This document shows positions 7,538 to 49,445 of a stretch of 64,000 bases of DNA, piece by piece. The stretch comes from a virus (taxonomy: Duplodnaviria; Caudoviricetes): the IMG/VR virus record IMGVR_UViG_3300027819_000006. The stretch is one strand, 5' to 3'. A model generated the notes under the pieces. That model ran no database searches. It was not told the DNA's origin and saw only the letters and a list, made by a program, of their open reading frames with translations. The translations under genes and the position numbers were made by a program. Position 1 is the stretch's first letter. Each line of letters starts with the position of its first letter.

Positions 7538-7882
7538 TGGTGGACCTGGAGAATATCGAAATTCTCGTGTAGTCTATGCTACATAAAAATTGTATTGTAC
7601 ATGCTTTTGCAAATTCTAATTTTTCATTCTGTTATAAAGAATTAGCAAAGTTTATAACAGAATTATTCTTTCTATTTATTAAAAGAAGTGTTCTTATCAG
7701 ATATGAATGATGCTATTCTATTTCCTATCTGCAAAATTTAGATAGCATAGCTGTTTAGCTCTTAAGCAGCTAGTTTGTATTGATTTTTGTCAATTACTAT
7801 TTTGCTGTAAGTTTAAAGAGTTTATAGCAAACTCTGCATGCAATTCTTACTTTACATACCTATCGATTCCAATTTCAGGCCC
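7538..7882 (-). ncRNA. ssrA: tmRNA (complete), tag (A)DKNQYKLAA
   Basis: 5' GGGCCTG pairs with 3' CAGGTCC-ACCA with a G3.U pair; AATCGATAGG D-loop region; GCATGC and AAGCATGTA; T-arm GAGAAT-TTCGAT-ATTCTC; tag ORF GAC...GCT GCT TAA at 7762-7791. Confidence 0.92.
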
Positions 7883-8253: not shown

Positions 8254-9804
8254 CTAAATAAGTACAGTATTTCCATTTGAGTTCAGAAATGTTGTAGTCT
8301 TTTCTGGTCCTTTTGATTCTAATCTTACAGGATTACTCCACAATATAAATATACTGTTGAGAACCTCTTTAGTATCAGCTATATCTAAAGTAATATCTTT
8401 ATCTGTATTATGTTTTAGCAACAGAGTTCCATTTCTACCATAGTTCATATCTACTACTTCTAGATTCGGCCTACCATGATTTGTTAACATGAATAATAGT
8501 TTTTGTTTCACATCTTTGAATTCTTTTGAAGATATTTGATATGTTATACCTTTTGGATCACCTTCTGCAGGTTCAGCTTTTGATTTATCTATTGTAAAAA
8601 GTTTCAGCTGAACACAAAGTTCTCTTGTAAAAAATTCATCTATGAACTCAACATCATTATAATATTTTCTAACTTCAAATATCTTTTCATGTCCAATATT
8701 CAGCTTCTTGTCCCAGTTCTTTTTTGTCTTGTAATCATCACATTCTTCCCATTCTCTGCCGAACTGTCCTTTATTCCATCTTTCTTCAATATCATTCCAT
8801 ATTTCTAGACCTAGTTTGTATGGATTCAAAGATCTAGATGATCCCATGGTGGCAGCATGATGCTCAGCATAATCTATAATTTCTGAATCGTCAAGAATTC
8901 CTCTTTTTGTAAGAATATGACTATGCCAATAACTTGCCCATCCCTCATTCATAATTTTCGTCATTCCTTGTGGAGCAAAGTAATATGCCTCTTCTCTGAT
9001 CATAGACATAATATTTCTCTGCCACTGTTTCATCGGAGCATGTTCAATCAGAAATAGAAGGAGATCTTTATAGGGTTTCTTAAGACTTTTTGCTTCCTCT
9101 TCTTCAAGTTCTTTCTTCTTTTCTTTTTTAAGTTTTTCAATTTCATCATCAGGATTAACAAATTTGTCCATATAAAATTTATCTGCAGAAACTTTAATTC
9201 TGTCTATATTCTGAGATTCTAAATCTATGTTCTTGTCTTCTTGTTCTTCTGGTGCTTTACTCTTTGCCATTAATATTTCATGTCTATCAATGTGTTGTTC
9301 TAAACTTGAGCAGATATCAATGAAATCTTCTACTTCTTTTTCTCCATATAGATCTATATATTGACTTACAATCTTAGCATGATTGCTGAATTGATTGATC
9401 ATTTTTCTATCTGTATTGGAAAACCAGATATTGTTTTTAAAGAAATCAGCATGTCCATAGACATGAGCCATAACTAATTTCTGATCTACTAATGTATTAT
9501 TTGTCATTAGATATGCATATACAGGATCTGTATTTACAACCATCTCTGATATTTTAGATAGACCGTAAAAATATTCTTTGTACATATGAGAATATGATTG
9601 TCCAAATTCCCAGTGAGAATATCTTTCCATGAAACCTGTTCTTGCAGCTATCTGATAAAGATCATCTGGTGAAACCATTTCAAAGACAGTTTTAAAAAAA
9701 TCAAGCTTTTCTTCTATAGCGATATCTTCTATTTTATATTTCCATTCTTTAAGATAATAAGGAAATTTTATTACTTGATCAAATTTATTATATGATTTTT
9801 CCAT
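8254..9804 (-). CDS. spoVR: SpoVR/YcgB family protein
   Basis: HWEFGQSY, SKISEMVVNTDP, AHVYGHADFFKNN, TKIMNEGWASYWH, LNPYKLG. Confidence 0.95.
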   Translation of the reverse strand: MEKSYNKFDQVIKFPYYLKEWKYKIEDIAIEEKLDFFKTVFEMVSPDDLYQIAARTGFMERYSHWEFGQSYSHMYKEYFYGLSKISEMVVNTDPVYAYLMTNNTLVDQKLVMAHVYGHADFFKNNIWFSNTDRKMINQFSNHAKIVSQYIDLYGEKEVEDFIDICSSLEQHIDRHEILMAKSKAPEEQEDKNIDLESQNIDRIKVSADKFYMDKFVNPDDEIEKLKKEKKKELEEEEAKSLKKPYKDLLLFLIEHAPMKQWQRNIMSMIREEAYYFAPQGMTKIMNEGWASYWHSHILTKRGILDDSEIIDYAEHHAATMGSSRSLNPYKLGLEIWNDIEERWNKGQFGREWEECDDYKTKKNWDKKLNIGHEKIFEVRKYYNDVEFIDEFFTRELCVQLKLFTIDKSKAEPAEGDPKGITYQISSKEFKDVKQKLLFMLTNHGRPNLEVVDMNYGRNGTLLLKHNTDKDITLDIADTKEVLNSIFILWSNPVRLESKGPEKTTTFLNSNGNTVLI

Positions 9805-9806
9805 AT

Positions 9807-10931
9807 CTAGTTGCCCTTTCCCAGCATGCTATGTATAACATTATAACAATCATTTCTAGAACTAGCTTTTGTCATTACAGTTTTTTCTTTAAACTCTTTA
9901 TCTTCGCCAAATTTACCAATTAGATGATCTGAAAAATTTTTATAATTTGACATATAAGAATATTGACCAGAAAGCATGCATAAACTTAGCTGATTTACAT
10001 TCGGAAGTATACTTTCTAATATTATTTTTGCTGTCTCTTCATCGTCTTCAGAATTCCAATTTTGATAATCTCCAAAATAAGCACAATAAATATTCCAATC
10101 AACTGAAGGATAAAATGTTCTCATTCTATCATCTAATATTTTAAATGCGCTTGAAATTAATGTTCCGCCTCCAGGAGTTAATTTATAAAATCTCTCCTTA
10201 TCAACTTCTGCAGCTTCTGTATCATGTAAAATATATCTAATATCTACATCATGATAAAACTTTTTTAACCATATTTCAATCCAATAGCATATTGTTTTTA
10301 CTATATCTAATTGTTCATCTGTCATAGAACCGGATACATCCATCATGTAGAATATGACAGCATTATTCATAGGCATAGGTTTAGTTTTCCAAGATTTATA
10401 TACAACATCATCTGTATAAGGTATTATTCTCGGAGATATTGGATTATATTGATTAGATTTAAGTTGTTTAAGAATAGTTTTAAGAATAGTTCTTTTTTTG
10501 TGTCTTAATGTTCGAGGTCCAGTAGAAGCAACAGTATTATATTTGTTTTTATAACCCTTCATCATTCTCTTGCCTTTTGGTAAAATATTAGGCAATGCTA
10601 ATTCTTCTCCTAACATCTCAGCTAATTCTTCTATATTCAATTCTGCATATTGTGAATGTCTGCCTTTTTCGTTACTAGCTTTACCTATTTCTTCTTCATC
10701 TGGATCAAAATCGACTATATCACCAACTTCTCCATCACCTCTACCAACAGAGCCAACTTCTCCTTTACTATATTTTATAGTAGGAATATGAATAGATTCA
10801 ATTGGAATTTTTATGGAATCTTTACCTCTAACAGAATTTATCTCACCATTAATAACTTTCTTTATCTTATCTTTGGCATTCTCACGCAATTTTTTTCTAA
10901 ATCTATCAGCGTCTTGTAAAGTTGAACCCAT
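9807..10931 (-). CDS. yeaH: YeaH/YhbH (DUF444) vWA-domain protein
   Basis: GRGDGEVGD, AVIFYMMDVSGSM, GGGTLISSA; lies between prkA and spoVR. Confidence 0.93.
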   Translation of the reverse strand: MGSTLQDADRFRKKLRENAKDKIKKVINGEINSVRGKDSIKIPIESIHIPTIKYSKGEVGSVGRGDGEVGDIVDFDPDEEEIGKASNEKGRHSQYAELNIEELAEMLGEELALPNILPKGKRMMKGYKNKYNTVASTGPRTLRHKKRTILKTILKQLKSNQYNPISPRIIPYTDDVVYKSWKTKPMPMNNAVIFYMMDVSGSMTDEQLDIVKTICYWIEIWLKKFYHDVDIRYILHDTEAAEVDKERFYKLTPGGGTLISSAFKILDDRMRTFYPSVDWNIYCAYFGDYQNWNSEDDEETAKIILESILPNVNQLSLCMLSGQYSYMSNYKNFSDHLIGKFGEDKEFKEKTVMTKASSRNDCYNVIHSMLGKGN

Positions 10932-10953
10932 TATTTATATCTCTCTTAAACGT

Positions 10954-12945
10954 TTATGAAGTCACTTTTGGATTTGACCTACTCATGATAGAACTTACGA
11001 AATTCAAACTATCAGTTGCACAATTATCGCAATAACCATATTCACTAATTAATCTTCCTTTAACTATATCTATTTTAGCTTGAGTATCTGAATCTACTAC
11101 ACCCGTAACAAGCTGATTAAGTTTAATTGTGTCTTTCTGATCTTCAAACAATTTCAGTTCAAGAGCCATTTGCAATCTTGGATTAGACTTATAATCAAAT
11201 TTCTTTCCGTCTACAGCTAACCCTCCAATATAGTTCATGATTGCAAGTCTGAAATCTCCTTTTCTTTCATCTGGAATATCAATTTTTTCTTCAATTGCTC
11301 GCATCAATCTTTCATCTGGCTCTTCATCTTTACCAGTATATTTATTTTTAACCTTTTCTTTTGAAGTGAAAGCTTTAATATTGTCGATATAATTCTGACA
11401 AATTCTAGCTAAACCTTGATCATCTGCTGCAATAGCTCTCTGAACTTCTCTTTTTACAATGTATTCATACTCTTCTTTTACATCATTTAATAAAGCTCTA
11501 AATTTCTTTCTTGTTTCTGGAGATGAAGTAAGTGAATAAATATCTAAACCTTTGTCTAATTCATTCATTACCATGAATGGGTTAATACATTTGAATTCTG
11601 AATTAACAATTGCATTTGAAATCTTATCTTGAATATATCTTGGAGAAATCCCTTCCATACCTTCTCTAGATTCTGCTTGCATCATTTCTTTTACATGATC
11701 TTCTGTAAATCCAGGTAAAGTTTTACCATTATACAATTTCATTTTCTGTACAATTGATAATTTACCACCTTCAGGATCTCTCAGTCTTGTCAAAACTGAC
11801 CACATTGCTGCAACCTCTAAAGTATGTGGAGCAATATGAGGATCTTTCATATTTTTAAATCTTTTTTCATAAATTTTCATTTCAGAATCAAGAATCTTAA
11901 TATATGGAATATCTACTCGAACAGTTCTATCTCTTAAAGCTTCCATACTCTCGTTTTTTTGCAGGTTTACGAAATCGGAAGCATTACAATGTCCCAAAAT
12001 TACTTCATCAATATCAACATGACTAAATTTCTTGGGTTTTATCTTATGCTCTTGTGAAGCAGTTAATAGATCATAAAGGAATGCTACATCTAATTTGAGA
12101 ACTTCAATCATTTCAATCATACCTCTATTTGCTACACAAAATTCTCCATCAAAGTTGAATGCTCTTGGATCAGAATCTCTACCATATTCAGCAATTTTTC
12201 TATAATCAATGTCTCCAGTTAACTCTGTAGAGTCTTGATTCTTTTCATCTTTTGGTTGAAATGTAGCAATTCCTATTCTATCATCTTCTGAAAATACATA
12301 TTTGAATACTTTAATATGATTGTCATAAATTTTTTCCACATCTCCGCTATATTTAGTCATCAGTTCATTGAAATAAAATCTGCATAAAGGACATAGATTA
12401 CCTAAAGATTTTCCAAATCCAAAAGTTTCTCTATGCTCTAATGGAATTAGATGTAGAGGATCTTCGTGCATTGGACAGACTACTTCAGTCTTATTTTCAT
12501 CATCTAATATCCATTTGAATGAATATACAGCTCCATCATCTTTCTTGCTGTATTCTTGAAGTCCCTTCTTCATTAGTCTAGCAATAGTAGATTTAGATGA
12601 TCCTACTGGCCCATGTAATAGAAAAATTCTACTTTCTGTACCATAACTATTCGCAGCAGATTCAACTAGCTTTACAAGCTTCATTAAATGGGGATCTATT
12701 CCATATACTGCATCTAGACCATCTTCCATAGGATCATCAAAGAAATTATAATGAATTACTCTTTCTTTAAAATGAGTATATTCATTAGTCCCATGAGATA
12801 AAATCATGTCAAACATTCTCTGAAATGCATTTCTATATAACTTTGGATTTTCTTTACATAGATCTATATAATTATTGAAACTCCCCTCCCAGTGCTCCCT
12901 ATCATACTTTGTCTGTTCTAACGCTGAGATAGATTTAAAATCCAT
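10954..12945 (-). CDS. prkA: PrkA/YeaG AAA-type serine kinase
   Basis: [54 protein letters not shown]. Confidence 0.96.
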
Positions 12946-12970: not shown

Positions 12971-13669
12971 TTATATGAACTGCTCTATGTAATTTCTATC
13001 TTCTGTGAATATTGGAATTTCATTATCTATTTTCCAATAACCTTCTATTTTAAAACAACACGCTCCTCTTTTAAAACTTGTTATTTCTTTTTCCCAACAA
13101 ACATCAACATCTTCTAATAGCATCTGTTTGACTTCTTTTGTGCTCTTGCTATCTAATTGTTTGTGAGAAAAGTGTTTCTGTCCTAAACAATTTATACTAT
13201 TTCTTTCACAGTCTTTCTGTCTCCAAATGAAATAATTGCAAACTTCTTCTTTGGGTAGAGAAAATACTCTGCAGTCAAAGAAAGCTGTTTGTAGTGGTAC
13301 TTTTAATTTAATAGGTTGCAAATATATATTTGCATAAGCTGTACATAATGAAGCTGCTACAGAAACTATCTTTTGAATATTACCACCAAACCACTGTTCA
13401 GTTTCAAATGTTTCATAGTCTGTCAACAATAAAGAAATTTCATCTGATTGAGTATAAGCTAATTTACAGTTCTGAACTTCACCACACAAATCTAATATTG
13501 TATATTTGAAAGCATTCATTAGATCTTCGTCATACGGCTTTTTCAGATGCTTTGTAAATGTATGGAAAGCCTTGCCATCCAATCTGATAATTGCTGGCAT
13601 TCTTGGAATTAGACGTTGTTCAGTGAAACATTTCTCAAATTTCTTCATGCGATCTGCGATATTTATCAT
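12971..13669 (-). CDS. thg1: tRNA-His guanylyltransferase Thg1-like protein
   Basis: IIRLDGKAFHTFT, YTQSDEISL, FDCRVF, YFIWRQ.D..RN. Confidence 0.93.
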   Translation of the reverse strand: MINIADRMKKFEKCFTEQRLIPRMPAIIRLDGKAFHTFTKHLKKPYDEDLMNAFKYTILDLCGEVQNCKLAYTQSDEISLLLTDYETFETEQWFGGNIQKIVSVAASLCTAYANIYLQPIKLKVPLQTAFFDCRVFSLPKEEVCNYFIWRQKDCERNSINCLGQKHFSHKQLDSKSTKEVKQMLLEDVDVCWEKEITSFKRGACCFKIEGYWKIDNEIPIFTEDRNYIEQFI

Positions 13670-13677
13670 AAAAACTC

Positions 13678-14454
13678 CTATGGATTGAATCTACTACCCC
13701 AATTATTATGGATTTCTTTATGACACTTCCTGCAAAGTATTAATCCATTCAATAAGTTTTCATCTTTTATTCTATCACAATTAGCTAAATAAGCAGCTTT
13801 ATCATCGTCACAATCGAAAACAATATTACATTTTGCTAATTCCTCTTTTATTAATATGACCATAGGAACTATATGATGAGCATCTAATTGTTCTTTGCTT
13901 CCGCATTTTGAACATTTATCATATGCAGCATACATTTTATTGTACCATTTAAATCTTCTACTGACTTCTATTTTAACTTTAACTGTTAGAGTGTGAAATC
14001 TACCACCTTTCCATGCAGTAGCATTTTTGCCGGTCTTGCCTGTTCTCGATATAGACATTTTATTCCTAGTAGCTATAGAATGTTTTTTATGATACATACT
14101 ATTTTTAGGACCAGATGTATCTCTAATTTTTATAGCATTTTGATATTTTTCTGAATTTCTTACAGCATTTCCATGTTCTTTCTTTTTTTCATCAGTCCAA
14201 AATGCTTTAGTTCTTTGAGGAGGATGATTTATGGGAACTATTTTTCTATAACATGGCTGGCATATATCTATATGAGATTGTCTATTTATTTTATTTCCAC
14301 ATTCACACATCATATTATTTCTACAGGGTCCACATATTTCGTATCCACATCTTATAGAATCTTCTTTTAATTCATTATTACAGCTGCGTATTTCACATTT
14401 CATTTTTATCTCCTTGAATATAATAAATATACTCAAGAGAGACAAATGAATCAA
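13678..14454 (-). CDS. HNH homing-endonuclease-like protein with NUMOD3-like motif
   Basis: KKHSIATRNKMS, CSKCG...HHI...LCRKCHKEIH. True start is probably MKCEIR. Confidence 0.8.
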   Translation of the reverse strand: MIHLSLLSIFIIFKEIKMKCEIRSCNNELKEDSIRCGYEICGPCRNNMMCECGNKINRQSHIDICQPCYRKIVPINHPPQRTKAFWTDEKKKEHGNAVRNSEKYQNAIKIRDTSGPKNSMYHKKHSIATRNKMSISRTGKTGKNATAWKGGRFHTLTVKVKIEVSRRFKWYNKMYAAYDKCSKCGSKEQLDAHHIVPMVILIKEELAKCNIVFDCDDDKAAYLANCDRIKDENLLNGLILCRKCHKEIHNNWGSRFNP

Positions 14455-15620: not shown

Positions 15621-15703
15621 TTTGATGCAAAAGTAAATAAAAAGATGCTTCCCATATAAAATAAATATATAAGAAACATCACTTTAAAACATCTGTCTAA
15701 CAA

Positions 15704-18700
15704 CTAAACAATCTTGAAACCATCTACAGAATATCTAGAAATTCTATTAACCTCTTCTTCTTCATGTTTCTCCATCTGATTCAAATAGAAAGCAAATCTC
15801 TCTTCTATATGCTCGTTCAAATCGTAAACTTTATCAGAATAAACTTTCAAATCTGCTGCTTTCTTCTTTGATTCTTCAAAATTCTCGACATGTTTAGATA
15901 TAGCATCTGTCCACACTTTAGGAGCTGTAACACTTACTGCCATGTTTTCAAATCTTAGTTTATCGGGAACAGTTTTCCAGAAGTCATGATAACCTCCATA
16001 ATTGCTGAATACTGGGACTGCTCCATAATACAAAGATTCTATCAGCTTTATCTCTGATTTGCACTCGCTAAATGTATTATGTTCTACATATGCCAAAGAT
16101 ATATCAAACAGAGTATAGAATTTAGCATATTCTTCTAGAGGCAGAGCATCAAAAATTTTTATTCTCTTTGGATCAATACCTGAATATAGTTTCTCTACTC
16201 TGTTTCTATAAGTCAAGCTCTTGTCTTGCAATTCCATTTCTCTGAATTTAGCCTGACCATTCTCGTCATATTGTATTTCTACTTGTGAATCTTTCAATGC
16301 CATACCAGCAAGCACAAATACAGTCTGTGGATATCTGTCATGTATGACTTTTAGAATGGAATACATTTTTCTCAGATCTTCAAAATGACTTGTAAGACCT
16401 GCCCAGCCAATAACAATTTTATTGTCAGTTGAAGGAAACCATTCTGGTAACATTTGCTGTCTAGTATCAGAAATATTTAAATTCCATTGTGGCAGTTGCC
16501 AGTCAAACATATTTCTGATTATATGCACATTCTTATTGAAATTTCCAAATGTTTTACATAGTTTCTCAGTAGTAGTTGTAATAGCATGACTCTTGCTTAG
16601 AGAGTGAATGCTCATTTGATCTTTTTTGCTTGCATCAATTATGTTGCGATGATATCGATTCCATATCATCTCTTATGGTCACCCATAAGTTCAGACTATT
16701 TCTTGTGCTATATTCAAAAGCACCTCTCTGTTTCAGCTTCTCTTGAAGCTTACATTATATAGTCGTTGCACTATCTGTGTTTCAAATATTCAGCTATTAT
16801 GCTGATTACTGCAATAAGAGATATTACAGATAAAGCATATATTAAAATATACTTTCCAAATAGCTCAGAGTTTTCTCAGTGAGATTTTCTCTGAATTAAG
16901 AGAGTTTTTATTATGTGAAGCAATTTAATACCACACATCACGCATCAATTATGTTATCTTAGAAGTTCTTTATCTTCTAATTCTGATAATTTTATTCTTA
17001 TCAGTTCGGACTATATCATCAGTATTGAAATACTGTCTCTTTTTCTTGGATATTTCTATCTAGTCTCTGAACCTTCTATTTTATCAATAGTTTAGCTGCT
17101 GATTAGCATTTCAGCTTTCCAGCAATTTAAGAGATTTTTCATTGAATTATTCAATGCCCCAATTTTTATTCAGGGTGCGTTCTTGGTAAGTTGAATTCAT
17201 TATCTATTTATTTGTTAACTGCAATTTCTTTTATTATAGTTGCAGATCGGACTATTTCATCTAGTTCTATGTCTAGTCTCTGAACCTTCTATTTATATAG
17301 CTTGGCTGCAGATTGTCTCTGTCTGAGATATCCCTGCAATTTATAGAATTTATTGTGGACAATATTTGAATTCTAAAAACTTAATCCACATCATGACAGA
17401 CCCAAGCAGATTTCTCTGTCTTCGGCCACATGTTTACTGCTGATAAAAAATGTGAATGTAAATTTCCACATCTGTGCATTATTATTCCATCTGCTAATTT
17501 GAGATGATTCGGTTGTCATTTATGTTGCGGAATTTATTCGCAATAAGCTGCTGAAAATAATATGCATGGTTTCTTAACTTTTATATTGATTTCTTCGAAG
17601 CTATAATCTCTAAAAGTATGAAAATTAAATTCATCTTCATTTCCAAAAGATCTTTTTAGTGTTGCTTTAGCCTCTTCTAAATCTTTTGCTGCTATAAAAA
17701 TTATACTAAGTGAATAACCTTTACATGCTTTTACTTTAAAATATTTCATAATAAATTCCTCTACAATTTTTTATATTGTTGTAGTTCGGACTATCACATG
17801 ATCTTATAATATACTAAGCTGCTACCATTCAATTTTACCAGATTTACGAACTAATTTGTTGCCATATAGAGTAACTACTAATACATCTTCTAATACTTTA
17901 TATGTTCTTTGTGCAGCGTTTGATTTAAATAATTTCTTAACAGAAGCTGCTTGTTTCTTAGTCATATATCTGTAATTCACCATAAGACCTCCAAGGTTTA
18001 GTCTCTTCTACTGCATTTTCATGCTTGTAGTTTGTTAGCTTTAATTATGTTTCTAATTTGTTTTTTGTCTAATTTATCAGAAGATATTACGCATCCAAAA
18101 TCGCTAGTATTTTTAGTGTCAGGATGTTGATAAATGTGTAATCCAAATTTGTATTTTAAAACATGTTCTAATATCTCTATGTAGCTCATTGGACCTCCTG
18201 CAATTATTTCTTGATTCATAGTCAAAGCCTTTCAATTTAATTACTTAAGATTCTCATTTCTATATTGCTATAGAATGATCCACATTGTCTAGATTTTCAG
18301 TATAAACTAAATTTATCTCATCTCTAAAATTCTTCCACAGTACTCTCATCGGTTCAAAGATTCTGAAATATGCTTTCATGTTAGCTACAATTTTTGATAT
18401 AGTTGTAGTTCGGACTATCATATGATCTTTATGCTTTACCAAGTCTCAGGATCATTTCTATAAAAGTGTACAAATGCTAAAAATATTATAATACATCCTA
18501 GTGGTAAAATTAAACATTTTAGATCTCCAATCGTTTAGTCTCTCAAGCTGCAAAATTGTTTATAAAGCTTCCTGTCTTGATTAAAATATACTTTTTCTAT
18601 TGAAAGCTCTACTAAATTATAAATATATGCACACTTTCTATTATCTTTGGGACATCCTGGATCTTCTGCTTCTAAATATATAAGAGGAGAATATTTATCT

Positions 18701-19309
18701 CTATATATTTTAGCAATTTTATAATCCCAACTTTTGAGCTGTCTTACCTGAACTTCAACCCAAAAAGGCATGTACCTATAGTTCATCATGTTTTGCTTGC
18801 TCCTTGTTGTCTGATTTCTATGATCAGATATTCAAGTGATTAGATTAGATTCTCATTCTATATTATTAGAATGACACCATTTAAAATGTTCCAGTTTCTG
18901 CTTTATGTTAATCTCTAATTTTTTGTATAGTTAGAGTTCGGACTATCATATGATCTTTACAGATTATTAAAATCAAAACCTTCTCCTTTATAATTCTCTG
19001 TACAATATGTCGCAACGAATATTAAAAGAAAAATTATTATTCCGCCCATAAAAATCTCCAATCGTTTAGTCTCTCAAGCTGTATTTAAACTTGTTCCTTG
19101 TTGTCTGAATTTTATTCAGATATTCAAGTGATTAGATTAGATTTTCATTCTATTGCTTATAGAATGCCGCCAGAATTTAACGGAGTGCTAAAAACGATAC
19201 AGCGCTTAGATCGATCGATGCTAGATGGATTAGTGAACATTTGTTTCAACTTGTTTCTTTCTTCAGCATTTTTATAGTTCAAATGCTCTTCTACATTTTC
19301 TTCTGTAAT
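15704..19309 (-). CDS. GT-B glycosyltransferase, 7 exons interrupted by six group I introns (446 aa spliced)
   Basis: Exons 19309-19180, 18900-18886, 18372-18291, 17516-17384, 17204-17172, 16945-16930, 16635-15704 total 1341 nt in frame: ...STPSETGTSYFRIFEP...HDVDDNEFNLPRTHPMRDVWYASKKDQ...IGWAG...KSEIKLIE. Probable ATT start behind AAGGAG. Confidence 0.88.
16636..16929 (-). mobile_element. Group I intron 6 (294 nt)
   Basis: P1 GUGUGGU/GCUUCAC; AAUCAGCA; GCAACGACUA; AAGAAAUAGUCUG; ends AACAUAAUUG; splicing restores the TAT codon. Confidence 0.88.
16946..17171 (-). mobile_element. Group I intron 5 (226 nt)
   Basis: P1 CCCU/GGGG; AAAUUGCUGGAAA; AAUCAGCAG; UUCAGAGACUA; GAUGAUAUAGUCC; ends AACAUAAUUG. 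Confidence 0.92.
17205..17383 (-). mobile_element. Group I intron 4 (about 179-180 nt, very compact)
   Basis: P1 GUGGAU/GUCCAC; AAAUUGCAGGGA; AAUCUGCAGCCAAG; UUCAGAGACUA; GAUGAAAUAGUCC. Confidence 0.9.
17534..17749 (-). CDS. 71-aa ORF looped out in a 3' helix of intron 3
   Basis: Flanked by complementary GAGGAATTTATT / AATAAATTCCGC. Confidence 0.55.
   Translation of the reverse strand: MKYFKVKACKGYSLSIIFIAAKDLEEAKATLKRSFGNEDEFNFHTFRDYSFEEINIKVKKPCILFSAAYCE
17822..17983 (-). CDS. 53-aa basic ORF inside intron 3 (not in ORF track)
   Basis: GGAGG then ATG; MVNYRYMTKKQAASVKKLFKS...KIEW. Confidence 0.5.
   Translation of the reverse strand: MVNYRYMTKKQAASVKKLFKSNAAQRTYKVLEDVLVVTLYGNKLVRKSGKIEW
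18019..18225 (-). CDS. Small ORF inside intron 3
   Basis: ORF track; AGGAGG before internal ATG (MSYIEILEH). Confidence 0.5.
   Translation of the reverse strand: MTMNQEIIAGGPMSYIEILEHVLKYKFGLHIYQHPDTKNTSDFGCVISSDKLDKKQIRNIIKANKLQA
18373..18885 (-). mobile_element. Group I intron 2 (513 nt), core nearly identical to intron 1
   Basis: P1 ACAU/GUGU, P10 AUG/CAU, same P3 and P7 strands as intron 1, ends AACAUGAAAG. Confidence 0.92.
18535..18789 (-). CDS. 84-aa ORF inside intron 2 (no homing endonuclease motif seen)
   Basis: ORF track; AAGGAG upstream within the intron core. Confidence 0.55.
   Translation of the reverse strand: MMNYRYMPFWVEVQVRQLKSWDYKIAKIYRDKYSPLIYLEAEDPGCPKDNRKCAYIYNLVELSIEKVYFNQDRKLYKQFCSLRD
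18901..19179 (-). mobile_element. Group I intron 1 (279 nt)
   Basis: P1 CCGU/GCGG with U.G at the 5' site; P10 UUCUG/CAGAA; P3 UCUAAUC/GAUUGGA; P7 GAGACUA/UAGUC; ends AACAUAAAG. Confidence 0.92.
18957..19049 (-). CDS. 30-aa hydrophobic mini-ORF inside intron 1
   Basis: GGAG-6 nt-ATG; MGGIIIFLLIFVATYCTENYKGEGFDFNNL. Confidence 0.45.
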   Translation of the reverse strand: MGGIIIFLLIFVATYCTENYKGEGFDFNNL

Positions 19310-19356: not shown

Positions 19357-19390
19357 CAAAAACAAAGCAATTTAAACTGCTTTGTTTTTT
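19357..19390 (-). terminator. Terminator-like hairpin
   Basis: AAAAACAAAGCA / TGCTTTGTTTTT inverted repeat. Confidence 0.6.
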
Positions 19391-21305: not shown

Positions 21306-21556
21306 TTATCTGATTTTTCTAATGGGAAGAATTTGCCTTCGTCTAAGTGGTTTTTTCTAGTACATTCTTCACAAGCTCCAAACTGACTAAAAAATTGTGC
21401 TGACCATCCCGTCAGTAGATTACCACATTTTTTACCATGTTCATCGACTCTGTCGCAAAAAACTGGAGAAATAGGTTTGTGATTTTCTTTTATAGTGCTC
21501 ATGTTGCTGTGCCATTTTTTTGTTTTATTTATTGGCAATCCTTGAAAGTTTTCCAT
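21302..21556 (-). CDS. Small Cys-rich (Zn-binding) protein
   Basis: FCD..., KCGNL, GACEEC. Confidence 0.55.
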   Translation of the reverse strand: MENFQGLPINKTKKWHSNMSTIKENHKPISPVFCDRVDEHGKKCGNLLTGWSAQFFSQFGACEECTRKNHLDEGKFFPLEKSDK

Positions 21557-22428
21557 TTGCTATCCTTTTTTAAATCTTCATAGAACAATATATAATATAT
21601 GTTTTCTAAATTATATTTTTCTAGAAAGTTTTTTATTTTAATTTTATTACACTCTGTTAAATATCCTTTGACTTCTTCTATTCTTATCAAATTATCATTC
21701 TCATCATAAATAAAGAAATCAGGAGTATATGTAGTTCCTTCTAATCTATATGTTATTTCTTCATACTTCCAGTTTGCAGATATAGAATCTAAAAATTGAG
21801 CCCTCTCTAATTCATAAGAAGATTTCAAATAATAATCTCTATATTCACTTTTTATATATCGATTTTTTATATTTGGGCTAACTTTTCTGCTCTGAACTAT
21901 CTTAACATTTCTATCGAACCACATCTCTTCAGCTTTTTCAACACCATATTCAGCTATCCACATATCTTTTACTGATACACCAAACATCCCATTCATAGAG
22001 CCAGTTAAACTCCAAGTTCCATTTTTCTTTTTACTTTCTTCTGATTTTGTAGTAATTTTTATCATAGTTTCTTTAGAATGGCGATGTCCAGTCATAGGAG
22101 GTATCTGTTGCAAACGTTTATCACGTCTTTCTTTTGAATCATAGACATGTTTTTTACAATATCCGTATTTATTCGGATTAATCCTTTTATTACAGCCTTC
22201 ATGTTTGCATATTACTTTTCTGTCATCAAAATATTTTCGCTTTCCATAGTTTGGACCATGGTGTCCTATACAAATGTAACATCTCAAAACTTTATTACTA
22301 ACGATATTATTCAGACATTGATTGCAATATTTATCTATATTGCTACAATATAAGCAGAAACTATATTCTTCAAATTGCATAGAGCGTTTATTACATTTGC
22401 TACATTCTCTGATAATTTCTTGTATCAT
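21529..22428 (-). CDS. Free-standing endonuclease-like protein (Zn ribbons, NUMOD3-like, PD-(D/E)xK)
   Basis: CxxC repeats, GHRHSKET, KSSYE...YTPDFFI...EEVKG. Confidence 0.75.
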   Translation of the reverse strand: MIQEIIRECSKCNKRSMQFEEYSFCLYCSNIDKYCNQCLNNIVSNKVLRCYICIGHHGPNYGKRKYFDDRKVICKHEGCNKRINPNKYGYCKKHVYDSKERRDKRLQQIPPMTGHRHSKETMIKITTKSEESKKKNGTWSLTGSMNGMFGVSVKDMWIAEYGVEKAEEMWFDRNVKIVQSRKVSPNIKNRYIKSEYRDYYLKSSYELERAQFLDSISANWKYEEITYRLEGTTYTPDFFIYDENDNLIRIEEVKGYLTECNKIKIKNFLEKYNLENIYYILFYEDLKKDSKWKTFKDCQ

Positions 22429-39985: not shown

Positions 39986-40942
39986 CTATTGTTTGTTTAA
40001 ACTTCTCAACACAAAATTGGTATATGGATTATGTTTTGAAATCATAATACCTATAAAACTCTTACTAATTTGTTTTTTATATTTCAATTTTGAATAACAT
40101 ATTAATAATTCTACTATATCTTCAATAAATTTATTATCATGATGCTTGAAATCAGGATTATCATTGTAATAACATAAAAATCTATTATACTGTTCAATTT
40201 CTTTTAATTCATCAATCCAAGAAATCATTTTGCTACTTTCAAAATTCATCTTATTTTGAATTGTTGTTTCTACATCATTTATTTGTTGTACTTTTTCAAA
40301 TTCTGTTTCATACAAATGTAAACTATTAACTATATGTGTATATGTTCCAATTTCTATTCCTAATTCTGTAGCAAACATCTCCTGTATCATTGTAAAATTA
40401 AACAAATCATTTGGAAATCCAAAATATATATCATTACTTCTCATGTGAGAAATCATATTAAGTTTATTATTTCTTATAAAAAATTGAAAATCAATTGTAC
40501 ATGGCACATCTTTAGTATTAATGAAATCTATTTGTGGGTCCAAAATAGTCATGACTGCTTGACGTGTGTCAATATCTTTCAATTTATTCAAAACATATTC
40601 AAATTGATCTATATTTCTATTTCTCAATCTTTTTCCATATGCACCATGTAATGTTCTGCCATTATCAGAATATTTTAACATTTTAGAATTATAGAATGTC
40701 AACATTTTTAAATCATCTTGGCCAGACACTATCCACAACCATTCTGCAATAGAAAATGCCATATTCATATTTCTAATTGTGTCATAAAATATTCTATCAT
40801 GTGGATTATTAACTATTATTGTACATGGAGATATTTCTAATGTATTCATCCCTCTTGGAGAAACTTTTTTACCATGTTCAAAAACATTGTCTATTACTTT
40901 TTTATATCCTGTAGATATTCCATCAATTTCAATAATTTTCAT
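39986..40942 (-). CDS. Thymidylate synthase superfamily enzyme of dCMP hydroxymethylase type
   Basis: GAYGKRL, DTRQAV, PCT, MRSNDIYFGFPND (Asp at the ThyA Asn177 position), SLHLYE. Confidence 0.8.
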   Translation of the reverse strand: MKIIEIDGISTGYKKVIDNVFEHGKKVSPRGMNTLEISPCTIIVNNPHDRIFYDTIRNMNMAFSIAEWLWIVSGQDDLKMLTFYNSKMLKYSDNGRTLHGAYGKRLRNRNIDQFEYVLNKLKDIDTRQAVMTILDPQIDFINTKDVPCTIDFQFFIRNNKLNMISHMRSNDIYFGFPNDLFNFTMIQEMFATELGIEIGTYTHIVNSLHLYETEFEKVQQINDVETTIQNKMNFESSKMISWIDELKEIEQYNRFLCYYNDNPDFKHHDNKFIEDIVELLICYSKLKYKKQISKSFIGIMISKHNPYTNFVLRSLNKQ

Positions 40943-42129
40943 ATGTCACTTAAATTTGTTAGAATTTTATCTAATTTATTTATGACGATCTCAGAAGAAT
41001 AATTTGATAAATAGAAATTTTTTACATTTTCTATTGTACAATCATATGGATGATTAACATAATAACATATTTTTTTAACATAAGATTGTATATCTTCACA
41101 CAACCCACTATAATTATCTGGTACCATTTCTTTGTATCCTGAATGATTTGGAAGAATAACTATGTAATTAGATAATATACTTTCTGCTATAGACATAGAC
41201 CAACATCCACCATTATTTGAAAATGTAGATACAGACATGTTGCATTCTTTTAAAACTTTATTGTATTCTTCTCTAGATAAGTTATTTTTAAGAATTATTT
41301 TAATGTGTTTTGTGTCTTTTAATGGTATATCATTTCTAGATGATAATTTACCACTAACATCTGTAAATATTACTTCTATTTTATTTTCTAAAAATTGTTC
41401 TAATTCTATTAAAATGTTTAAAAATTTTTTGAAAGCATCATCATAATACCTCATTGTAGAAATTCTATGATTATATAAAATTTTAATATCTCGATTATAT
41501 CCTGAATTAAAAAGATTTTCTTCATTTATAATTGGTTGAACCGCAAACAATTTATCAAAACAACTTTCATCTTTATTTCTTAACATCAATGGAAAAGTTT
41601 TAATAAATTGTTCTTTAATTTGTAAAATTGCAAATTTAGAATTGCATAGATAAGCATCAGACAACAACAATCCTTCAAGTTGTCTAATAAAATATGGACA
41701 TCTTGCATCTATTTTTGAATATTCATATGTATCTATCCAATGATTATATGCAACTACTTTAATTTTGTCTATTAATTTTTCTTCCAACAACAATGTTTTC
41801 CAGTTATTTACTAATGTGGGATTGTTTTCAAATATAATATCAGGTTGAAATTCTATGATCATGTTTGAATATTTTTCTGAATCCCAATCATATCTAGAAC
41901 TGAATACTCTTTTATTAAAATTTGTCATAATGAATGAAACATTTTCCGCATGAACATACTTACTTCCATGTGGTATCAAAATTAGAAATTTGTATTTGTT
42001 TGGCAAATATTTATTACAACCATTAACTATATTAGTGAAAAAGTTAAAATTAGAATCATTCTCTAAAAGAAACTCATGTGTATCTTTTGATATACAACTA
42101 AGTTGAGGGTTCCACAATATTGTTTTCAT
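40939..42129 (-). CDS. GT-B glycosyltransferase-like protein
   Basis: ILYNHRI, LSREEY...L, W.MSIAE, PNHSGYKEM. Confidence 0.7.
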   Translation of the reverse strand: MKTILWNPQLSCISKDTHEFLLENDSNFNFFTNIVNGCNKYLPNKYKFLILIPHGSKYVHAENVSFIMTNFNKRVFSSRYDWDSEKYSNMIIEFQPDIIFENNPTLVNNWKTLLLEEKLIDKIKVVAYNHWIDTYEYSKIDARCPYFIRQLEGLLLSDAYLCNSKFAILQIKEQFIKTFPLMLRNKDESCFDKLFAVQPIINEENLFNSGYNRDIKILYNHRISTMRYYDDAFKKFLNILIELEQFLENKIEVIFTDVSGKLSSRNDIPLKDTKHIKIILKNNLSREEYNKVLKECNMSVSTFSNNGGCWSMSIAESILSNYIVILPNHSGYKEMVPDNYSGLCEDIQSYVKKICYYVNHPYDCTIENVKNFYLSNYSSEIVINKLDKILTNLSDI

Positions 42130-44836: not shown

Positions 44837-45719
44837 TGTTGAATTGTTTCAATATTGGTATATATAATTTTTTATTACTTCCAGCTGCATAATGTATCAT
44901 TACAGGTGCATTTAACATTTTCTTTTGTATTTTTGAAGTATCTTTTAATTTGGTTAAAATTAATCTTACTTCACCGTTTTCATAAGTAAACTTATTGTTA
45001 TTGTCTTTGATTATTTTTTTAAAATACCAATTCCAAAATTGATCTGCAAAAAAAGATTTTGAAACATAACCATCTTTTTTATATCCATTTTCATATTTGT
45101 AATAGTGTTGTTTAAATATGTTCATTAAAAAATCATTGGCATAAAATTTATTAAGATAGTCAATCATCCTGTCTTCAAACGTATATGTAAATGTTCCTGC
45201 ACCAAGTGTATCTGAGTTATATTCATCAACTGAAATGTCTAATTCAAATATATTTCTATATTCATAAAACTGTTGTGGAATATTGTTTTTATCATATTTA
45301 TTAAACGGTACACGAATAAATGCATTGTCATATTTAAATAATAAAGAAGCATCCTGATATATAACAATATCATCATCTGTCATAACTATCTTGTCTGTCT
45401 TGTCACTGAAGTATATTGGTATCGTAAATTGTGAATTATATCTATAGTAATTAAAAAACAACTTTGCATCTATGTTTAAAGGATTTAATTTACTAATTGC
45501 TTTTGTGTCGATGTCTTTAGAATCATATATACAATAATTATTTTTTATAGAACTACATTTACTATTCATAATCATTTTATCTATTTCTTTTCTTTTGTCC
45601 ACATTTCTAGTATCATTTACAAAATGAAATAACACATTGTTGTCTGTTTCTTTGGGATATTTATATAGTAATAACTCTAACATATCCATATCATTTTGTA
45701 ATATAATTAAATCTTTCAT
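44781..45719 (-). CDS. GT-A glycosyltransferase-like protein
   Basis: IVMTDDDIVI (DxD), DQ motif, IHYA. Confidence 0.55.
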   Translation of the reverse strand: MKDLIILQNDMDMLELLLYKYPKETDNNVLFHFVNDTRNVDKRKEIDKMIMNSKCSSIKNNYCIYDSKDIDTKAISKLNPLNIDAKLFFNYYRYNSQFTIPIYFSDKTDKIVMTDDDIVIYQDASLLFKYDNAFIRVPFNKYDKNNIPQQFYEYRNIFELDISVDEYNSDTLGAGTFTYTFEDRMIDYLNKFYANDFLMNIFKQHYYKYENGYKKDGYVSKSFFADQFWNWYFKKIIKDNNNKFTYENGEVRLILTKLKDTSKIQKKMLNAPVMIHYAAGSNKKLYIPILKQFNIVTKNNKKMLQRNETDNN

Positions 45720-48037
45720 TTGTTTCCGTTTAAAAGATTATCTATGTTCATTATTGAAAAATCAGCTTGATCTTGGGTATATTTCCATGTTTTGAATCCC
45801 AACATTATTTCATTCTTATCATTTTTGTAAAATCTTATTAAATACAATCCATTCAATATCAAATTTTTTATGAATGAATACAATCCTGTAAATATTGGAA
45901 ATGACAATTTTGTATTATTCATATCACTTACTTGAATAAATGCCATATCATTTTTGTTTTTATCTTTCATTTCTCTTTTACTATCTATTTTTACCACTAC
46001 ATATGCTTCCTCATCTTTTGAATTTTGAAATTCTTCAAATTCACATATATTTAAATCTTTAAAAAATGAACATGATGTTTTATGTATTTCATAAAATTCT
46101 ACAATTTTTTTGGCTTGTTTCATCACTTTTACTTCACTTTGTTTGTTTATGAATAAAACATTGCCATACAATTCTTCCTCAAAAATTGATAGTTCATCAT
46201 TAGTGAATTCTTTTACAGCTAAATTATCAGCATCTTTTTCAAATCTATCATGATTTGAAATATATCTTTTTTTTCTTTTTTCATTGTTTTCTGAATAAGA
46301 TGAACCATATAACTCTAATTCATGTATTAATTTATTTCTATTTTCAGTCCCATGTAAAGAATCAAATGCACCAAGTTTAATCAAATTTATGATATTTTTA
46401 TTACCACATTTTAAATTTCTATACAAAAAGTCTCTGAAAGATTTATAATTACCATTTTTTTCTCTATCTTCTATGATAACTGTAGGAGATTTTTCTCCCA
46501 TGCCCTTTATTTTGCTAAATGGTAATCTTATAGAATTTTGTTCAATACTAAATTCTAAAAATGAATTGTTTGTATCCGGTTGTAATATATTAATTTTAGT
46601 ATTTCTTATTTCTTTTACAGCTGTAACAAAATCCTCTTTACCACTATATGATAATGTAGCTGTATAAAATTCAAGCGGATAATGTGTAGCAAGATATGCT
46701 GTTTGATATGAAATCATGGAATAGCTAAAAGAGTGGGCCCGATTGAAAGAGTACCCTGCATGATTCATTATTTTTTTCCACAAATCTTCTGCAACTTCCT
46801 TTTTACATCCATTAACAATTGCATTGCTTACAAATTTATTTTCAAACTCTTTCCATTCTTTGTGAACTTTTTCCATGTCTAAAGACTTGCTTCTTTTAAC
46901 AACAGATTTTCTAAATGCATTTATTTCTGGCCAGGTAAATCCGCCCAATTCTTTACATAAAATCATAAAATCATCTTGAAAACATACAATAGAATATGTT
47001 TCTTTTAAAACTTTTTCTATAATTGGATGTTCATATGCAATCAACTCAGGACTATGTTTTCCTTTTGCATATTCATCCAGCATTCCAGATCTTAATGGAC
47101 CAGGTCTATATAATGCAGCTATAACAGCAATGTCTACAAAACAATCAGGTATTATTTTTTTTGCTAATTTTCTAATACCATTCTCTGTAAATTGAAATAT
47201 GCCACAAAAATTTCCATCTTGAAAAACATGTTTAAAAACTTGTTGATCTTTTATGTCTATATTATTTGGATGAAATCTTTTTACTATTTCTTTGTAGTCA
47301 ATACATTCTTTTTTTGATATTAATCTATATGTATGGTCCAAAACTCTTAATGTACTTAATCCCAACACATCAAATTTTAAAAATCCAAATTCAGACAATG
47401 TTTTAGATGCTACACCTTCAGTATAAGCAGTTTGCATCACTCTTTTACCATCATCTCCAGCAGTAGATTGTAATGGCATTTTTTTATATAAATCATCAGC
47501 AATACATATACCAGCAGCATGTTTACCCAATGATCTATTTTTACCAAACAACACTTTAAATGTTTCTTCAATACCATCAGCAGATTTAACAAAATTAACA
47601 AATGTTGGTGAATATTCTGACAATTCATCAAATCCTATTTTAATCGTAGATTTGTCTTGATCGTTGTTGTCATGATATATTTCAGATAATTCTATAGAAA
47701 TATTTTTTGTAATTTTATTCATTTCTTCAAATGAACGTCCATATATTCTACCAATATCTTTTACTAAGTTTCTATAAGAAAATGTACCATATAAACTTAC
47801 TTGAGCAACATTATCTTCATGATATCTTTGTTTTAGATATGTTTTTATTCTATCTGGATATTCCCAATCCATGTCGATATCTGGAAGTTCTGAATTGTGT
47901 GAAATTATATATGTATTTCCGAGTTGAGATATTTGATATGAATGGACATTTTCAATTTCTAAATCATATACAATTCCATCATAATCTATTTCTTCTATAG
48001 ATGAAACTTTATGAAAATTTACATTTTCAATATCCAA
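45716..48037 (-). CDS. dnaE: DNA polymerase III alpha, C-terminal part, with N-terminal split-intein C-fragment
   Basis: VYDLEIE...ISHN then SELPDIDMD, GKHAAG, KFDVLGL, FQF, ALYRPGP, YSFNRAHS. Confidence 0.95.
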   Translation of the reverse strand: MDIENVNFHKVSSIEEIDYDGIVYDLEIENVHSYQISQLGNTYIISHNSELPDIDMDWEYPDRIKTYLKQRYHEDNVAQVSLYGTFSYRNLVKDIGRIYGRSFEEMNKITKNISIELSEIYHDNNDQDKSTIKIGFDELSEYSPTFVNFVKSADGIEETFKVLFGKNRSLGKHAAGICIADDLYKKMPLQSTAGDDGKRVMQTAYTEGVASKTLSEFGFLKFDVLGLSTLRVLDHTYRLISKKECIDYKEIVKRFHPNNIDIKDQQVFKHVFQDGNFCGIFQFTENGIRKLAKKIIPDCFVDIAVIAALYRPGPLRSGMLDEYAKGKHSPELIAYEHPIIEKVLKETYSIVCFQDDFMILCKELGGFTWPEINAFRKSVVKRSKSLDMEKVHKEWKEFENKFVSNAIVNGCKKEVAEDLWKKIMNHAGYSFNRAHSFSYSMISYQTAYLATHYPLEFYTATLSYSGKEDFVTAVKEIRNTKINILQPDTNNSFLEFSIEQNSIRLPFSKIKGMGEKSPTVIIEDREKNGNYKSFRDFLYRNLKCGNKNIINLIKLGAFDSLHGTENRNKLIHELELYGSSYSENNEKRKKRYISNHDRFEKDADNLAVKEFTNDELSIFEEELYGNVLFINKQSEVKVMKQAKKIVEFYEIHKTSCSFFKDLNICEFEEFQNSKDEEAYVVVKIDSKREMKDKNKNDMAFIQVSDMNNTKLSFPIFTGLYSFIKNLILNGLYLIRFYKNDKNEIMLGFKTWKYTQDQADFSIMNIDNLLNGNK
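47894..48037 (-). other. Split intein C-fragment (48 aa)
   Basis: Block F VYDLEI, block G SHN, +1 Ser. Confidence 0.92.
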
Positions 48038-49138
48038 TTTTCACCTTCTTTGATGTAGACATTATCATTTAAATTTTTCATATGCCATTTATGTTTGTTG
48101 GCACACAAACTATTGCAATATGTTTTTTTCTTAGAATTTTTCGTAACTTTACCAATAAGAAAATATTCATTACATCCAATACATCTTTTATAATATTGTT
48201 TTTCTAAATATTTTATTGAATCTTCATATTTTAATTCTAAATTTGATATTACATTTATTAACTTGGAATTTACAAGTAATTTATAAAAATCATTTTGATA
48301 TATAACTTTCAAATTTTTTATAAAATTATTTTGTATATATTGATATTTTTTTTCTATTTCTTCTGTTTTAAAGCCCTTCAGTTCTATATATTCATCTTCA
48401 TCTATTATATAAAAATCAGGAGTATATGATTTGAATCCAATATCAAAAGTTTTAGGATGAAAAACGTAATTTTTATTAATATAAATAAGATATCTTATAA
48501 AATTTGCTTCAAAACTTGAGTGACACAATTCATTAATATCATCTCTATAACCAATAAATCCTCTTGAATATATTTTTATTTGTCCATTTGATTGAGCTAA
48601 AAATTGACATTTTCTAGAACAAAATCTTTTTTTTGCAGATGTTTTTTTTATCTATCCTTATATTAAATTATTACAAGATATATATTCACATTTTTTTTCT
48701 ATAGTACTTTGTTGTATTTTATTATTTTTGAATGTTTTTTTACACTCTGTGGAACAAAATTTTTCAGCAGCCATGACTCTTTTATTCAGCTTAGATATAT
48801 AATAAGTTATCCCACAATTTTTACAAATTACTTCTAATTTATTATATTCAAATTTTAATTTGTTCAAGATAGTTGTATTTATATCTACAAATGTTTGAAC
48901 AGCATTTAACATAAATATCATTTTTGTATATTATAAATTTATTTTTGCAAACTATACATTCCTTTTCTATTAATATTGCATTTTGTAAATTGATATCTAT
49001 TAAACTTGTATTTCTATAATTTTTAGTACATTCTATTGAACAACAATTAACATTACCAATTGTATCAAATAAACTTTTACAATTTAAGCATTTTTTCTGC
49101 ATTTTTTCACCTGTTTGAAAGATTATATAATATATCAT
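48019..49138 (-). pseudogene. Zn-ribbon-repeat PD-(D/E)xK endonuclease between the dnaE halves, broken into three ORFs
   Basis: CxxC..CSxxC repeats; SSFEANF, YTPDFY, IELKG; disruptions near 48850 and 48650. Confidence 0.7.
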
Positions 49139-49166
49139 TCAAAGCAAAAAAATACAAAAAAAATAT

Positions 49167-49445
49167 TTATTTTTTTACCTCAACTAGATAATCGTTTAAT
49201 GTGATATCACATGCTAATTTGTATTCAATTTTATCTTTATTATATACTAATAATCTATGATTCTTTGTACATATTATAAAATCATCATGATATTTTATCT
49301 TCAAAAGCTTTTCTTTCTTGTTGTATTTAAAAACATTTTTTACTATATCTTCACTATTTATATTTTTTACAATGTCATTCTTAATTACTTTATTAATTTG
49401 TTTTACAGAATCATTCATCATTATTTTTGTAGTTGGTACCAAACA
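49167..49445 (-). other. Split intein N-fragment (92 aa)
   Basis: Block A CLVPTTKI, block B ICTKNHRL, then stop. Confidence 0.92.

Follow-up and report, generated by a model that had tools for sequence, protein, structure and literature searches.

The 64,000-nucleotide (nt) stretch of DNA analysed here, hereafter the window (IMG/VR record IMGVR_UViG_3300027819_000006), derives from groundwater metagenomes and belongs to a large, uncultured and distantly T4-like tailed phage. In line with the phage assignment made in a preliminary description of the sequence, genes for a T4-type terminase, DnaB, ribonucleotide reductase (RNR) and family B DNA polymerase were found, together with a thymidylate-synthase homologue, CobS/CobT-like genes, a PrkA-DUF444-SpoVR triad and a transfer-messenger RNA (tmRNA). 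Flavobacterium phage immuto and Microcystis phage Mel-JY01 come closest among cultured phages, at a TerL identity of only ∼41%. On the minus strand, between positions 15704 and 19309, lies a gene of the glycosyltransferase family that is interrupted by six group I introns, its pre-mRNA coding span being made up of 1341 nt of exons and 2265 nt of introns. Gene caller output for this locus contains the last 321 codons alone as an open reading frame (ORF).

When the six segments listed as introns in the preliminary description were removed, the seven exons, all on the minus strand, joined into 1341 nt that read as one uninterrupted frame of 446 codons. Exon 1 (19180..19309, 130 nt), located by tblastn of the homologues P0004, P0060 and P0118, encodes residues 1–43 and the first base of Ser44, and is followed by the 15 nt micro-exon 2 (18886..18900), which carries the rest of Ser44, the residues ETGT and the first base of Ser49. 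Exon 3 (18291..18372, 82 nt) and exon 4 (17384..17516, 133 nt, ending in ...HDVD) were also located by tblastn, as was the 33 nt micro-exon 5 (17172..17204), which encodes DNEFNLPRTHP and is identical at 10 of 11 residues. The 16 nt micro-exon 6 (16930..16945) contributes MRDVW, which reads MRDIW or MRDMW in homologues, and the first base of Tyr137, while exon 7 (15704..16635, 932 nt including the stop codon) encodes the rest of the N-terminal half and the entire C-terminal half. The micro-exons of 15, 16 and 33 nt and the confinement of all introns to the first 409 coding nucleotides were thus as previously proposed. A Shine-Dalgarno sequence AAGGAG (19323-19318, minus strand), as read from the sequence, precedes by a 7 nt spacer a probable AUU start codon at 19309-19307; an in-frame TAA is found 15 nt further upstream, and with AUU as the start the N-terminus would fit the lengths of the homologues, the alternatives being a TTG at 19282 and the ATG of Met24 at 19240-19238. 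Terminator-like hairpins, both on the minus strand, flank the gene on either side and none occurs inside it: that of the upstream gene (19358..19389), a 14 bp stem with a U run behind it, bounds the transcription unit on its 5′ side, and the other (15644..15680) begins 24 nt past the stop codon.

A search with the 321-aa ORF found 132 relatives, most of them ∼443 aa long and uninterrupted, from marine and other metagenomes. Exon 7 is 62–64% identical to the closest of these over 93–96% of the ORF. When intron-free homologues were compared with the raw window by tblastn, exons 1, 3, 4, 5 and 7 were recovered exactly at the borders drawn in the preliminary description. The 15 and 16 nt micro-exons are below the size reach of BLAST, and they supply exactly the residues absent between the tblastn high-scoring segment pairs, SETGT in the case of exon 2 and MRDVW in that of exon 6; the peptide ETGT occurs only once across the six frames of the 64 kb, namely in micro-exon 2. 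Multiple alignment of the spliced protein with 12 homologues showed zero gaps at all six joins, which confirmed the continuous frame and passed the comparison with intron-free homologues that had been suggested as a check. The N-terminal 140 aa are 61–70% identical to the closer homologues and 42–51% to four distant ones, and are as conserved as the C-terminal part (54–62%). The spliced protein retains every one of the 55 columns (55/55) that show no variation in an alignment of 25 family sequences.

The earlier label of the gene as a glycosyltransferase was supported at the level of the fold family by a PHROG match (phrog_7162 ‘glycosyltransferase’, 1e-17) and by an AlphaFold model of the homologue P0004, not of the window's own product. 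This model, computed from a 25-sequence alignment (predicted local distance difference test score 91, predicted template modelling score 0.88), displays two Rossmann-like domains of the GT-B type. Foldseek matched it to MshA, BshA, HepE, GlgM and glycogen synthase with a probability of 1.0, E-values down to 8e-12 and template modelling (TM) scores up to 0.64–0.72, the nearest folds being the GT4 enzymes MshA, BshA, HepE and GlgM. Pfam gave no hit at threshold for exon 7 or the homologue P0020, and P0118 reached 23.8 bits with Glyco_trans_1_2 against a cut-off of 25 bits. The model suggests that the host gene family has a GT-B (GT4-like) glycosyltransferase fold, with transferase activity as the predicted function. 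All six introns fall in the part coding for the N-terminal Rossmann domain. Cultured phages gave no match to the region by megablast or to exon 7 by tblastn, and a full-length homologue retrieved only hits of ∼24% identity from them.

A filter-free scan of the window for the R/S elements of the group I core, in which the P7 5′ strand (..GACUA..) is followed by J8/7 and the P7 3′ strand (..AUAGUC..), detected six paired core elements, all within this gene. On the minus strand they are located, for introns 1–6 in order, at 19074/18946, 18543/18418, 18006/17794, 17281/17255, 17068/17014 and 16767/16699. All six 5′ exons end in a U, which faces a G in the internal guide sequence located at about intron nt 8–30. 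Both the six P7 pairs (GACUA/UAGUC) and the preceding P1 helices with a U.G pair, as noted in the preliminary description, were thereby recovered. In the six introns of the window and six introns of relatives, P1 comprises 4–7 bp with the exon and 0–2 bp into the intron. A terminal G is present in introns 1, 2, 3, 5 and 6 (five of six) and in 11 of the 12 introns examined in the window and in the related loci L001, L005, L031 and L035. These 12 introns, which include both of the classes described below, share a 3′ tail formed by the motif (U/C)AACA, 3–9 nt and the terminal nucleotide, and introns 5 and 6 have an identical 14 nt 3′ junction (AACAUAAUUG|AUGC); the shared 3′ sequences may stem from gene conversion among the introns or from a P9.0/P10 element that they have in common. 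No further copies of either class were found in the window by BLAST or by the R/S motif scan. With the Rfam model RF00028, which has a curated gathering score of 50 bits, introns 4, 5 and 6 scored 51.4, 61.8 and 38.5 bits (E 1.7e-7), respectively, when the region was searched alone. Whole-window Rfam scans at gathering and E-value thresholds reported the tmRNA only and no introns. As these misses are due to the speed filters of Rfam, a negative whole-contig scan means little, and the introns show only when a few kb are searched. Taken with the borders and the restored conserved frame, the cores bear out the earlier statement that the gene is interrupted by six group I introns.

Introns 4–6 (class B) have the features of ordinary phage-type, IA-like introns. 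Intron 4 (17205..17383, minus strand, 179 nt) is compact and has no P8; its 5′ splice site, defined by a 7 bp P1 (UGUGGAU/GUCCACA), is the firmest of the six. Intron 5 (16946..17171, minus strand, 226 nt) carries no ORF, and intron 6 (16636..16929, minus strand, 294 nt) has a P1 of nine positions with one mismatch and ends in G. In the Rfam alignment introns 5 and 6 possess the full core and intron 4 all of it but P8. The lack of P8 raised the question of whether intron 4 is decayed, an explanation that was rejected since P8-less cores recur in intact-looking RNR genes of other phages. Such cores, with 17–19 nt between the P7 strands, were found with sequence variation in ∼20 viral contigs, and that of intron 4 is 76–78% identical to those of P8-less introns in phage class II RNR genes, all of which end in G. 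In six IMG/VR contigs (L153, L168, L173, L188, L191 and L208) these compact introns are inserted in the class II RNR gene exactly at the active-site sequence NP|CGE and have a 7 bp P1.

Introns 1–3 (class A) form a divergent group. Intron 1 (18901..19179, minus strand, 279 nt) begins with the P1 CCGU(UA)/(U)GGCGG, ends in G and contains a 34-aa ORF in its P8 region (19061-18957, minus strand). Intron 2 (18373..18885, minus strand, 513 nt) is a paralogue of intron 1 with an orphan ORF of 84 aa (18789-18535, minus strand) that occupies the P6 loop and ends inside P7. Intron 3 (17517..18290, minus strand, 774 nt) has three ORFs, all on the minus strand, in the P6 loop (18225-18019), in the P8 region (17983-17822) and in a terminal loop 3′ of P9 that is closed by a 10 bp helix (17749-17534). 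The cores of introns 1 and 2 are 84–88% identical, the 5′ and 3′ cores of all three 84–93%, and introns 2 and 3 carry inserts of 240–600 nt in the P6, P8 and P9 loops. Unconstrained minimum free energy folds of introns 1 and 2 recovered P1, P2, P3, P4, P5, P6 and P9, and the order of helices in introns 1–3 and a related L001 intron is canonical (P1-P2-P3-P4-P5-P6-P7-P3′-P8-P7′-P9), P8 being variable and the helix check extending to P1–P7 and P9. Compensatory changes with respect to the L001 intron were observed in P1, P2, P3, P5, P6, P7 and P9, for example GACUA/UAGUC versus GACUG/CAGUC in P7 and CUCUAA/UUAGAG versus CUACAA/UUGUAG versus CUCUCA/UGAGAG in P9. IMG/VR, scanned for exact class A motifs, yielded no match, and a looser R...S pattern retrieved generic phage introns only. 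On these sequence comparisons introns 1–3 are clearly paralogous and would have spread within the gene, each guide sequence fitting its own exon. Ahead of each small intron ORF is a GGAG or AAGGAG resembling a Shine-Dalgarno sequence; in introns 1–3 it belongs to P3′ or P4′. In class A the P3′ strand (..UUGGAG..) is followed 4–7 nt later by the AUG of an ORF of 34, 19 or 53 aa (P3′/AUG segments of introns 1–3 at 19064-19044, 18533-18513 and 17996-17978, minus strand), and the 53-aa ORF shares with the 84-aa ORF of intron 2 the N-terminus M(M/V)NYRYM (BLASTP E 0.002). To judge from this similarity, the class A small ORFs may be vestiges of a single ancestral protein of these introns.

Exons were mapped in 121 loci carrying the gene, ∼100 of which are uninterrupted. 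In L001–L004, which represent one phage type with a 154 kb contig, there are two introns, one at QP|SH, 7 nt from site 3 of the window, and one of ∼1 kb at THP|M, which is site 5. Another groundwater phage (L005–L007) has introns at QP|SH, at HDV|DD, 3 nt from site 4 of the window, and at site 5, so that L005 contains three or more. L031, whose protein is 45% identical, carries a class B intron exactly at site 1, a different intron from that in the window, and in L035 site 5 is occupied by an intron of ∼1 kb. Over the window and its relatives this amounts to eight distinct sites, all in codons 44–137. Intron 5 is 68–71% identical to the site 5 introns of L001–L007 and L035 and hence orthologous to them; those of L001 and L035 each encode an ORF of ∼210 aa, of which that of L001 matches the homing endonuclease phrog_3339 (E 3e-9). 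Site 5 is filled in the window, L001–L004, L005–L007 and L035, and site 1 in the window and L031, a pattern of presence and absence that is, as far as the sequences go, the one expected of mobile introns. With five other lineages bearing different subsets of introns, over eight sites in all, and ∼100 homologues carrying none, the notion of a ‘landing pad’ put forward previously holds in the sense of a plain hot spot. The six sites of the window are confined to 94 of the 446 codons (rough P about 0.002), and of the six junction codons, four show little or no variation.

The explanation that we favour, with a probability of roughly 85%, is that selfish group I introns have colonised a working-type gene, whose transcript must undergo six self-splicing events. 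Six invasions would have struck codons 44–137, in the N-terminal Rossmann domain, by two intron families, the class A trio (introns 1–3) having spread inside the gene and class B comprising introns 4–6. Production of the 446-aa enzyme would then need six guanosine-initiated self-splicing reactions on a 3.6 kb transcript, in each of which P1 would present the last U of the exon opposite G, and the terminal nucleotide of the intron would swap into the G site before ligation, the ligations running over exons of which the shortest measure 15 and 16 nt. From the sequence we infer that splicing occurs. Homing driven by endonucleases presumably brought the introns in; their endonuclease genes would have been lost afterwards, one being retained only in the site 5 introns of relatives, and the introns would now be passengers rather than regulators.

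Several observations weigh against this explanation. The P1 helices are short, mostly 4 bp, and pairing with the own exon as compared with foreign exons (4.4 versus 2.6 bp) gives a modest contrast. The Rfam group I scan proposed as a check in the preliminary description matched introns 4–6, but introns 1–3 failed the model: intron 1 obtained 16.7 bits (E 0.047) over its 5′ half only, and introns 2 and 3 gave no hit. The structure of introns 1–3 is based on four sequences and hand-assigned helices, which is good, not statistical, evidence. For the junctions, a preference for conserved codons is no more than a trend (P about 0.08), and the sequencing runs holding this DNA include no RNA run. As to the borders, frame and homology agree with those first drawn, but intron 4 so delimited ends in A instead of G: its frame-keeping end is A17205, and the canonical G lies one base on, at G17204, where exon 5 must begin because the frame and the invariant Asp120-Asp121 need it. 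Shifting both borders of intron 4 by one base to obtain a terminal G was tried and discarded, as it gives HDVDYNEF, breaks the U.G pair of P1 and turns an invariant Asp into Tyr. The P7 of intron 4 is the same as that of intron 5, with no compensating change, and nothing therefore suggests an adaptation to adenosine. With no terminal G where the frame requires it, correct excision of all six introns is not assured. Finally, the intron ORFs of the window (34–84 aa) gave no endonuclease match in Pfam, PHROGs, a search of 5.8 billion proteins or the ESM atlas, and for this reason the introns of the window are probably stranded or were moved in trans. The latter route, by which introns lacking an endonuclease can move, has its model in the T4 mobE and I-TevIII systems, where free-standing endonucleases promote trans-homing (PMC2790892); like these, the window has free-standing nuclease genes, as candidates only. 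Nuclease-like genes flank the interrupted gene on both sides, an HNH-like gene of 258 aa at 13678-14454 and a DUF1064/resolvase-like gene of 299 aa at 21529-22428 (minus strand), and their products are candidate trans-acting homing enzymes.

The irregular end of intron 4 leaves room for other explanations. In one of them the allele would have been inactivated only recently, the gene being dispensable and a graveyard of introns, and intron 4 would splice at G17204. The mRNA would then be one base short and translation would stop ∼25 codons later. Such a choice of splice site would agree with the terminal G of 11 of the 12 introns examined and of all RNR kin of intron 4, with the G placed just one base past the frame-preserving site and with the P7 identical to that of intron 5. 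The intron of L005 at the neighbouring site ends in ...AUG|GAU, which suggests that one G was lost here from an original ...AG|GAU, and a family absent from cultured phages except for hits of ∼24% identity may well be dispensable. However, the 446 codons contain no stop or shift, 55 of 55 invariant residues are intact and exon 5 is identical at 10 of 11 residues, so that the loss would have to be very recent, although the same sequence is present in several samples; we consider inactivation possible but improbable. It is more doubtful still that the full-length enzyme is made with intron 4 joining its exons by a 3′-terminal adenosine beside an unused G. If this were true, protein production would hinge on six ribozymes folding on one transcript, three of them near-identical paralogues, and an organelle-style intron load would be working in a phage; intron 4 is in any event a natural case for asking how strictly group I ribozymes require the terminal G. 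About as tentative as inactivation is the idea that some introns, with 4, 2 and 3 as candidates, are not autonomous and need help in trans from a protein factor or a neighbouring intron. Intron 4 lacks both P8 and the terminal G, introns 2 and 3 are burdened with 240–600 nt loop inserts, and in the Bastillevirinae four of eight spliced genes were spliced only in infected cells (PMC11878797). On the other hand, P8-less cores recur in ∼20 viral contigs and in intact RNR genes, and self-splicing phage introns normally carry ORFs in their peripheral loops.

The colonisation of a working-type gene by selfish introns also has to be set against a regulatory role and against an artefact. Slow or conditional splicing, or exon skipping, could tune or delay enzyme output, which is the ‘splicing-gated switch’ of the preliminary description. 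The points in favour are circumstantial: exon skipping is documented in Twort orf142 and phage SIOphi (PMC11878797), the halves of introns 1 and 2 could mispair given their 84–88% identity, and skipping of the 15 nt or the 33 nt exon stays in frame. Skipping exon 2 or 5 would nevertheless delete invariant residues, and ∼100 homologues without introns, together with relatives bearing other subsets, are what selfish insertion predicts and not what a conserved device would leave; the switch found no support in these data and is very unlikely. By analogy with the precedents (PMC11878797), exon skipping as such is a fair prediction for the near-identical introns 1 and 2 around a 15 nt exon. That the intervening segments are not contained in one molecule, by assembly error or chimerism, is scarcely credible. 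A 78 kb contig from a second assembler (L212) is letter-identical over 6.2 kb, and letter-identical short contigs of different samples or studies run over the borders of exons 2, 3 and 4, which rules out a chimera. The 3′ junction of intron 4 reads the same in the contig of the second assembler, and an assembly error at this point is therefore unlikely. A check for independent coverage of this 3′ end found the 321-aa ORF not on record and the fetched contigs identical to the window, and no intron-less joints were present among the contigs of four DNA runs.

Group I introns of phages are textbook objects; new here are the unusual host gene, the divergent intron class and the one irregular 3′ end. 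Published cases have one to three introns per gene, almost all of them in DNA-metabolism or packaging genes. The highest count per phage gene in the literature searched is three, in Twort orf142 and in the DNA polymerase and TerL genes of the Bastillevirinae (PMC11878797), and no denser case is given in a paper on phage group II introns (PMC12350094). The present set is accordingly the densest and largest for a phage gene within the literature searched, twice the published maximum. As in Twort orf142, several small phage-type group I introns separate short internal exons of one protein gene outside nucleotide metabolism. In contrast to the three Twort introns, whose splicing has been shown, the six of the window are predicted from the sequence, and they comprise two families, an intragenic paralogous trio and exons down to 15–16 nt. 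The Bastillevirinae DNA polymerase, TerL and RNR genes resemble it in having up to three introns per gene, a small exon between introns and polymorphic presence, but these are DNA-metabolism and packaging genes (PMC11878797), whereas here a glycosyltransferase-fold gene bears double the number. Introns 4–6 share their R/S core (GGUUCAGAGACUA ... AUAGUCC) and architecture with the T4 td, nrdB and nrdD introns and the IA2-type (RF00028); in T4, however, each gene has a single such intron, in most cases with an endonuclease gene, whereas no endonuclease is recognisable in the window introns. The closest parallel in load is the fungal mitochondrial cox1 gene, which in Agaricus bisporus has 18 group I introns (PMC2987802), organellar micro-exons being as short as 1 bp (PMC5436844). 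There too a single gene is a reservoir of numerous group I introns, which sit at conserved codons and are polymorphic site by site, and micro-exons occur; unlike the phage genome, which is under packaging constraint, the organelle has protein splicing factors and little size pressure. Six introns within 409 coding nt of a glycosyltransferase-fold gene indicate that a phage gene can bear a cox1-like load. The relatives with 0, 1, 2, 3 or more and 6 introns at eight sites constitute a natural series on intron colonisation, which also serves the study of how one intron family is re-targeted inside a gene, with a different guide for each paralogue, and of the loss of endonuclease genes. The locus is also a warning for annotation, as gene callers give a 321-aa fragment and a whole-contig Rfam scan with default filters misses all six introns.

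Elsewhere in the window, the family B DNA polymerase gene (45716-50774, minus strand) is split into two ORFs, 50774-49167 (the N-terminal portion, positions 42–440 of phrog_405) and 48037-45716 (positions 441–1066). The ∼1.1 kb between them holds a 169-aa ORF (48528-48019) with weak nuclease-like PHROG hits; the interval gave no Rfam group I hit and contains no R/S core, so that this interruption is of a different kind. The PrkA-DUF444-SpoVR triad, a bacterial module associated with stress and sporulation that is here carried by a phage, is complete (AAA_PrkA and PrkA, DUF444, SpoVR; 8254-12945, minus strand, Pfam E down to 1e-124). The window also contains a gene of the Thg1 family (tRNA-His guanylyltransferase-like, 12971-13669, minus strand, Pfam E 7e-32). 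The tmRNA (RF00023) lies at 7538-7882 on the minus strand and scored 56.7 bits; its counterparts in L001 (10348-10708), L003 (5958-6318) and L005 (3037-3386) scored 62–123 bits, and in all three phage lineages the tmRNA is found a few kb downstream of the glycosyltransferase gene. Immediately after the thymidylate-synthase homologue (phrog_5131, 3e-74) comes another gene with weak glycosyltransferase similarity (Glycos_transf_1, E 0.0025), and this pair (39986-42129, minus strand) could, by sequence similarity, provide base hydroxymethylation and glycosylation for DNA modification.

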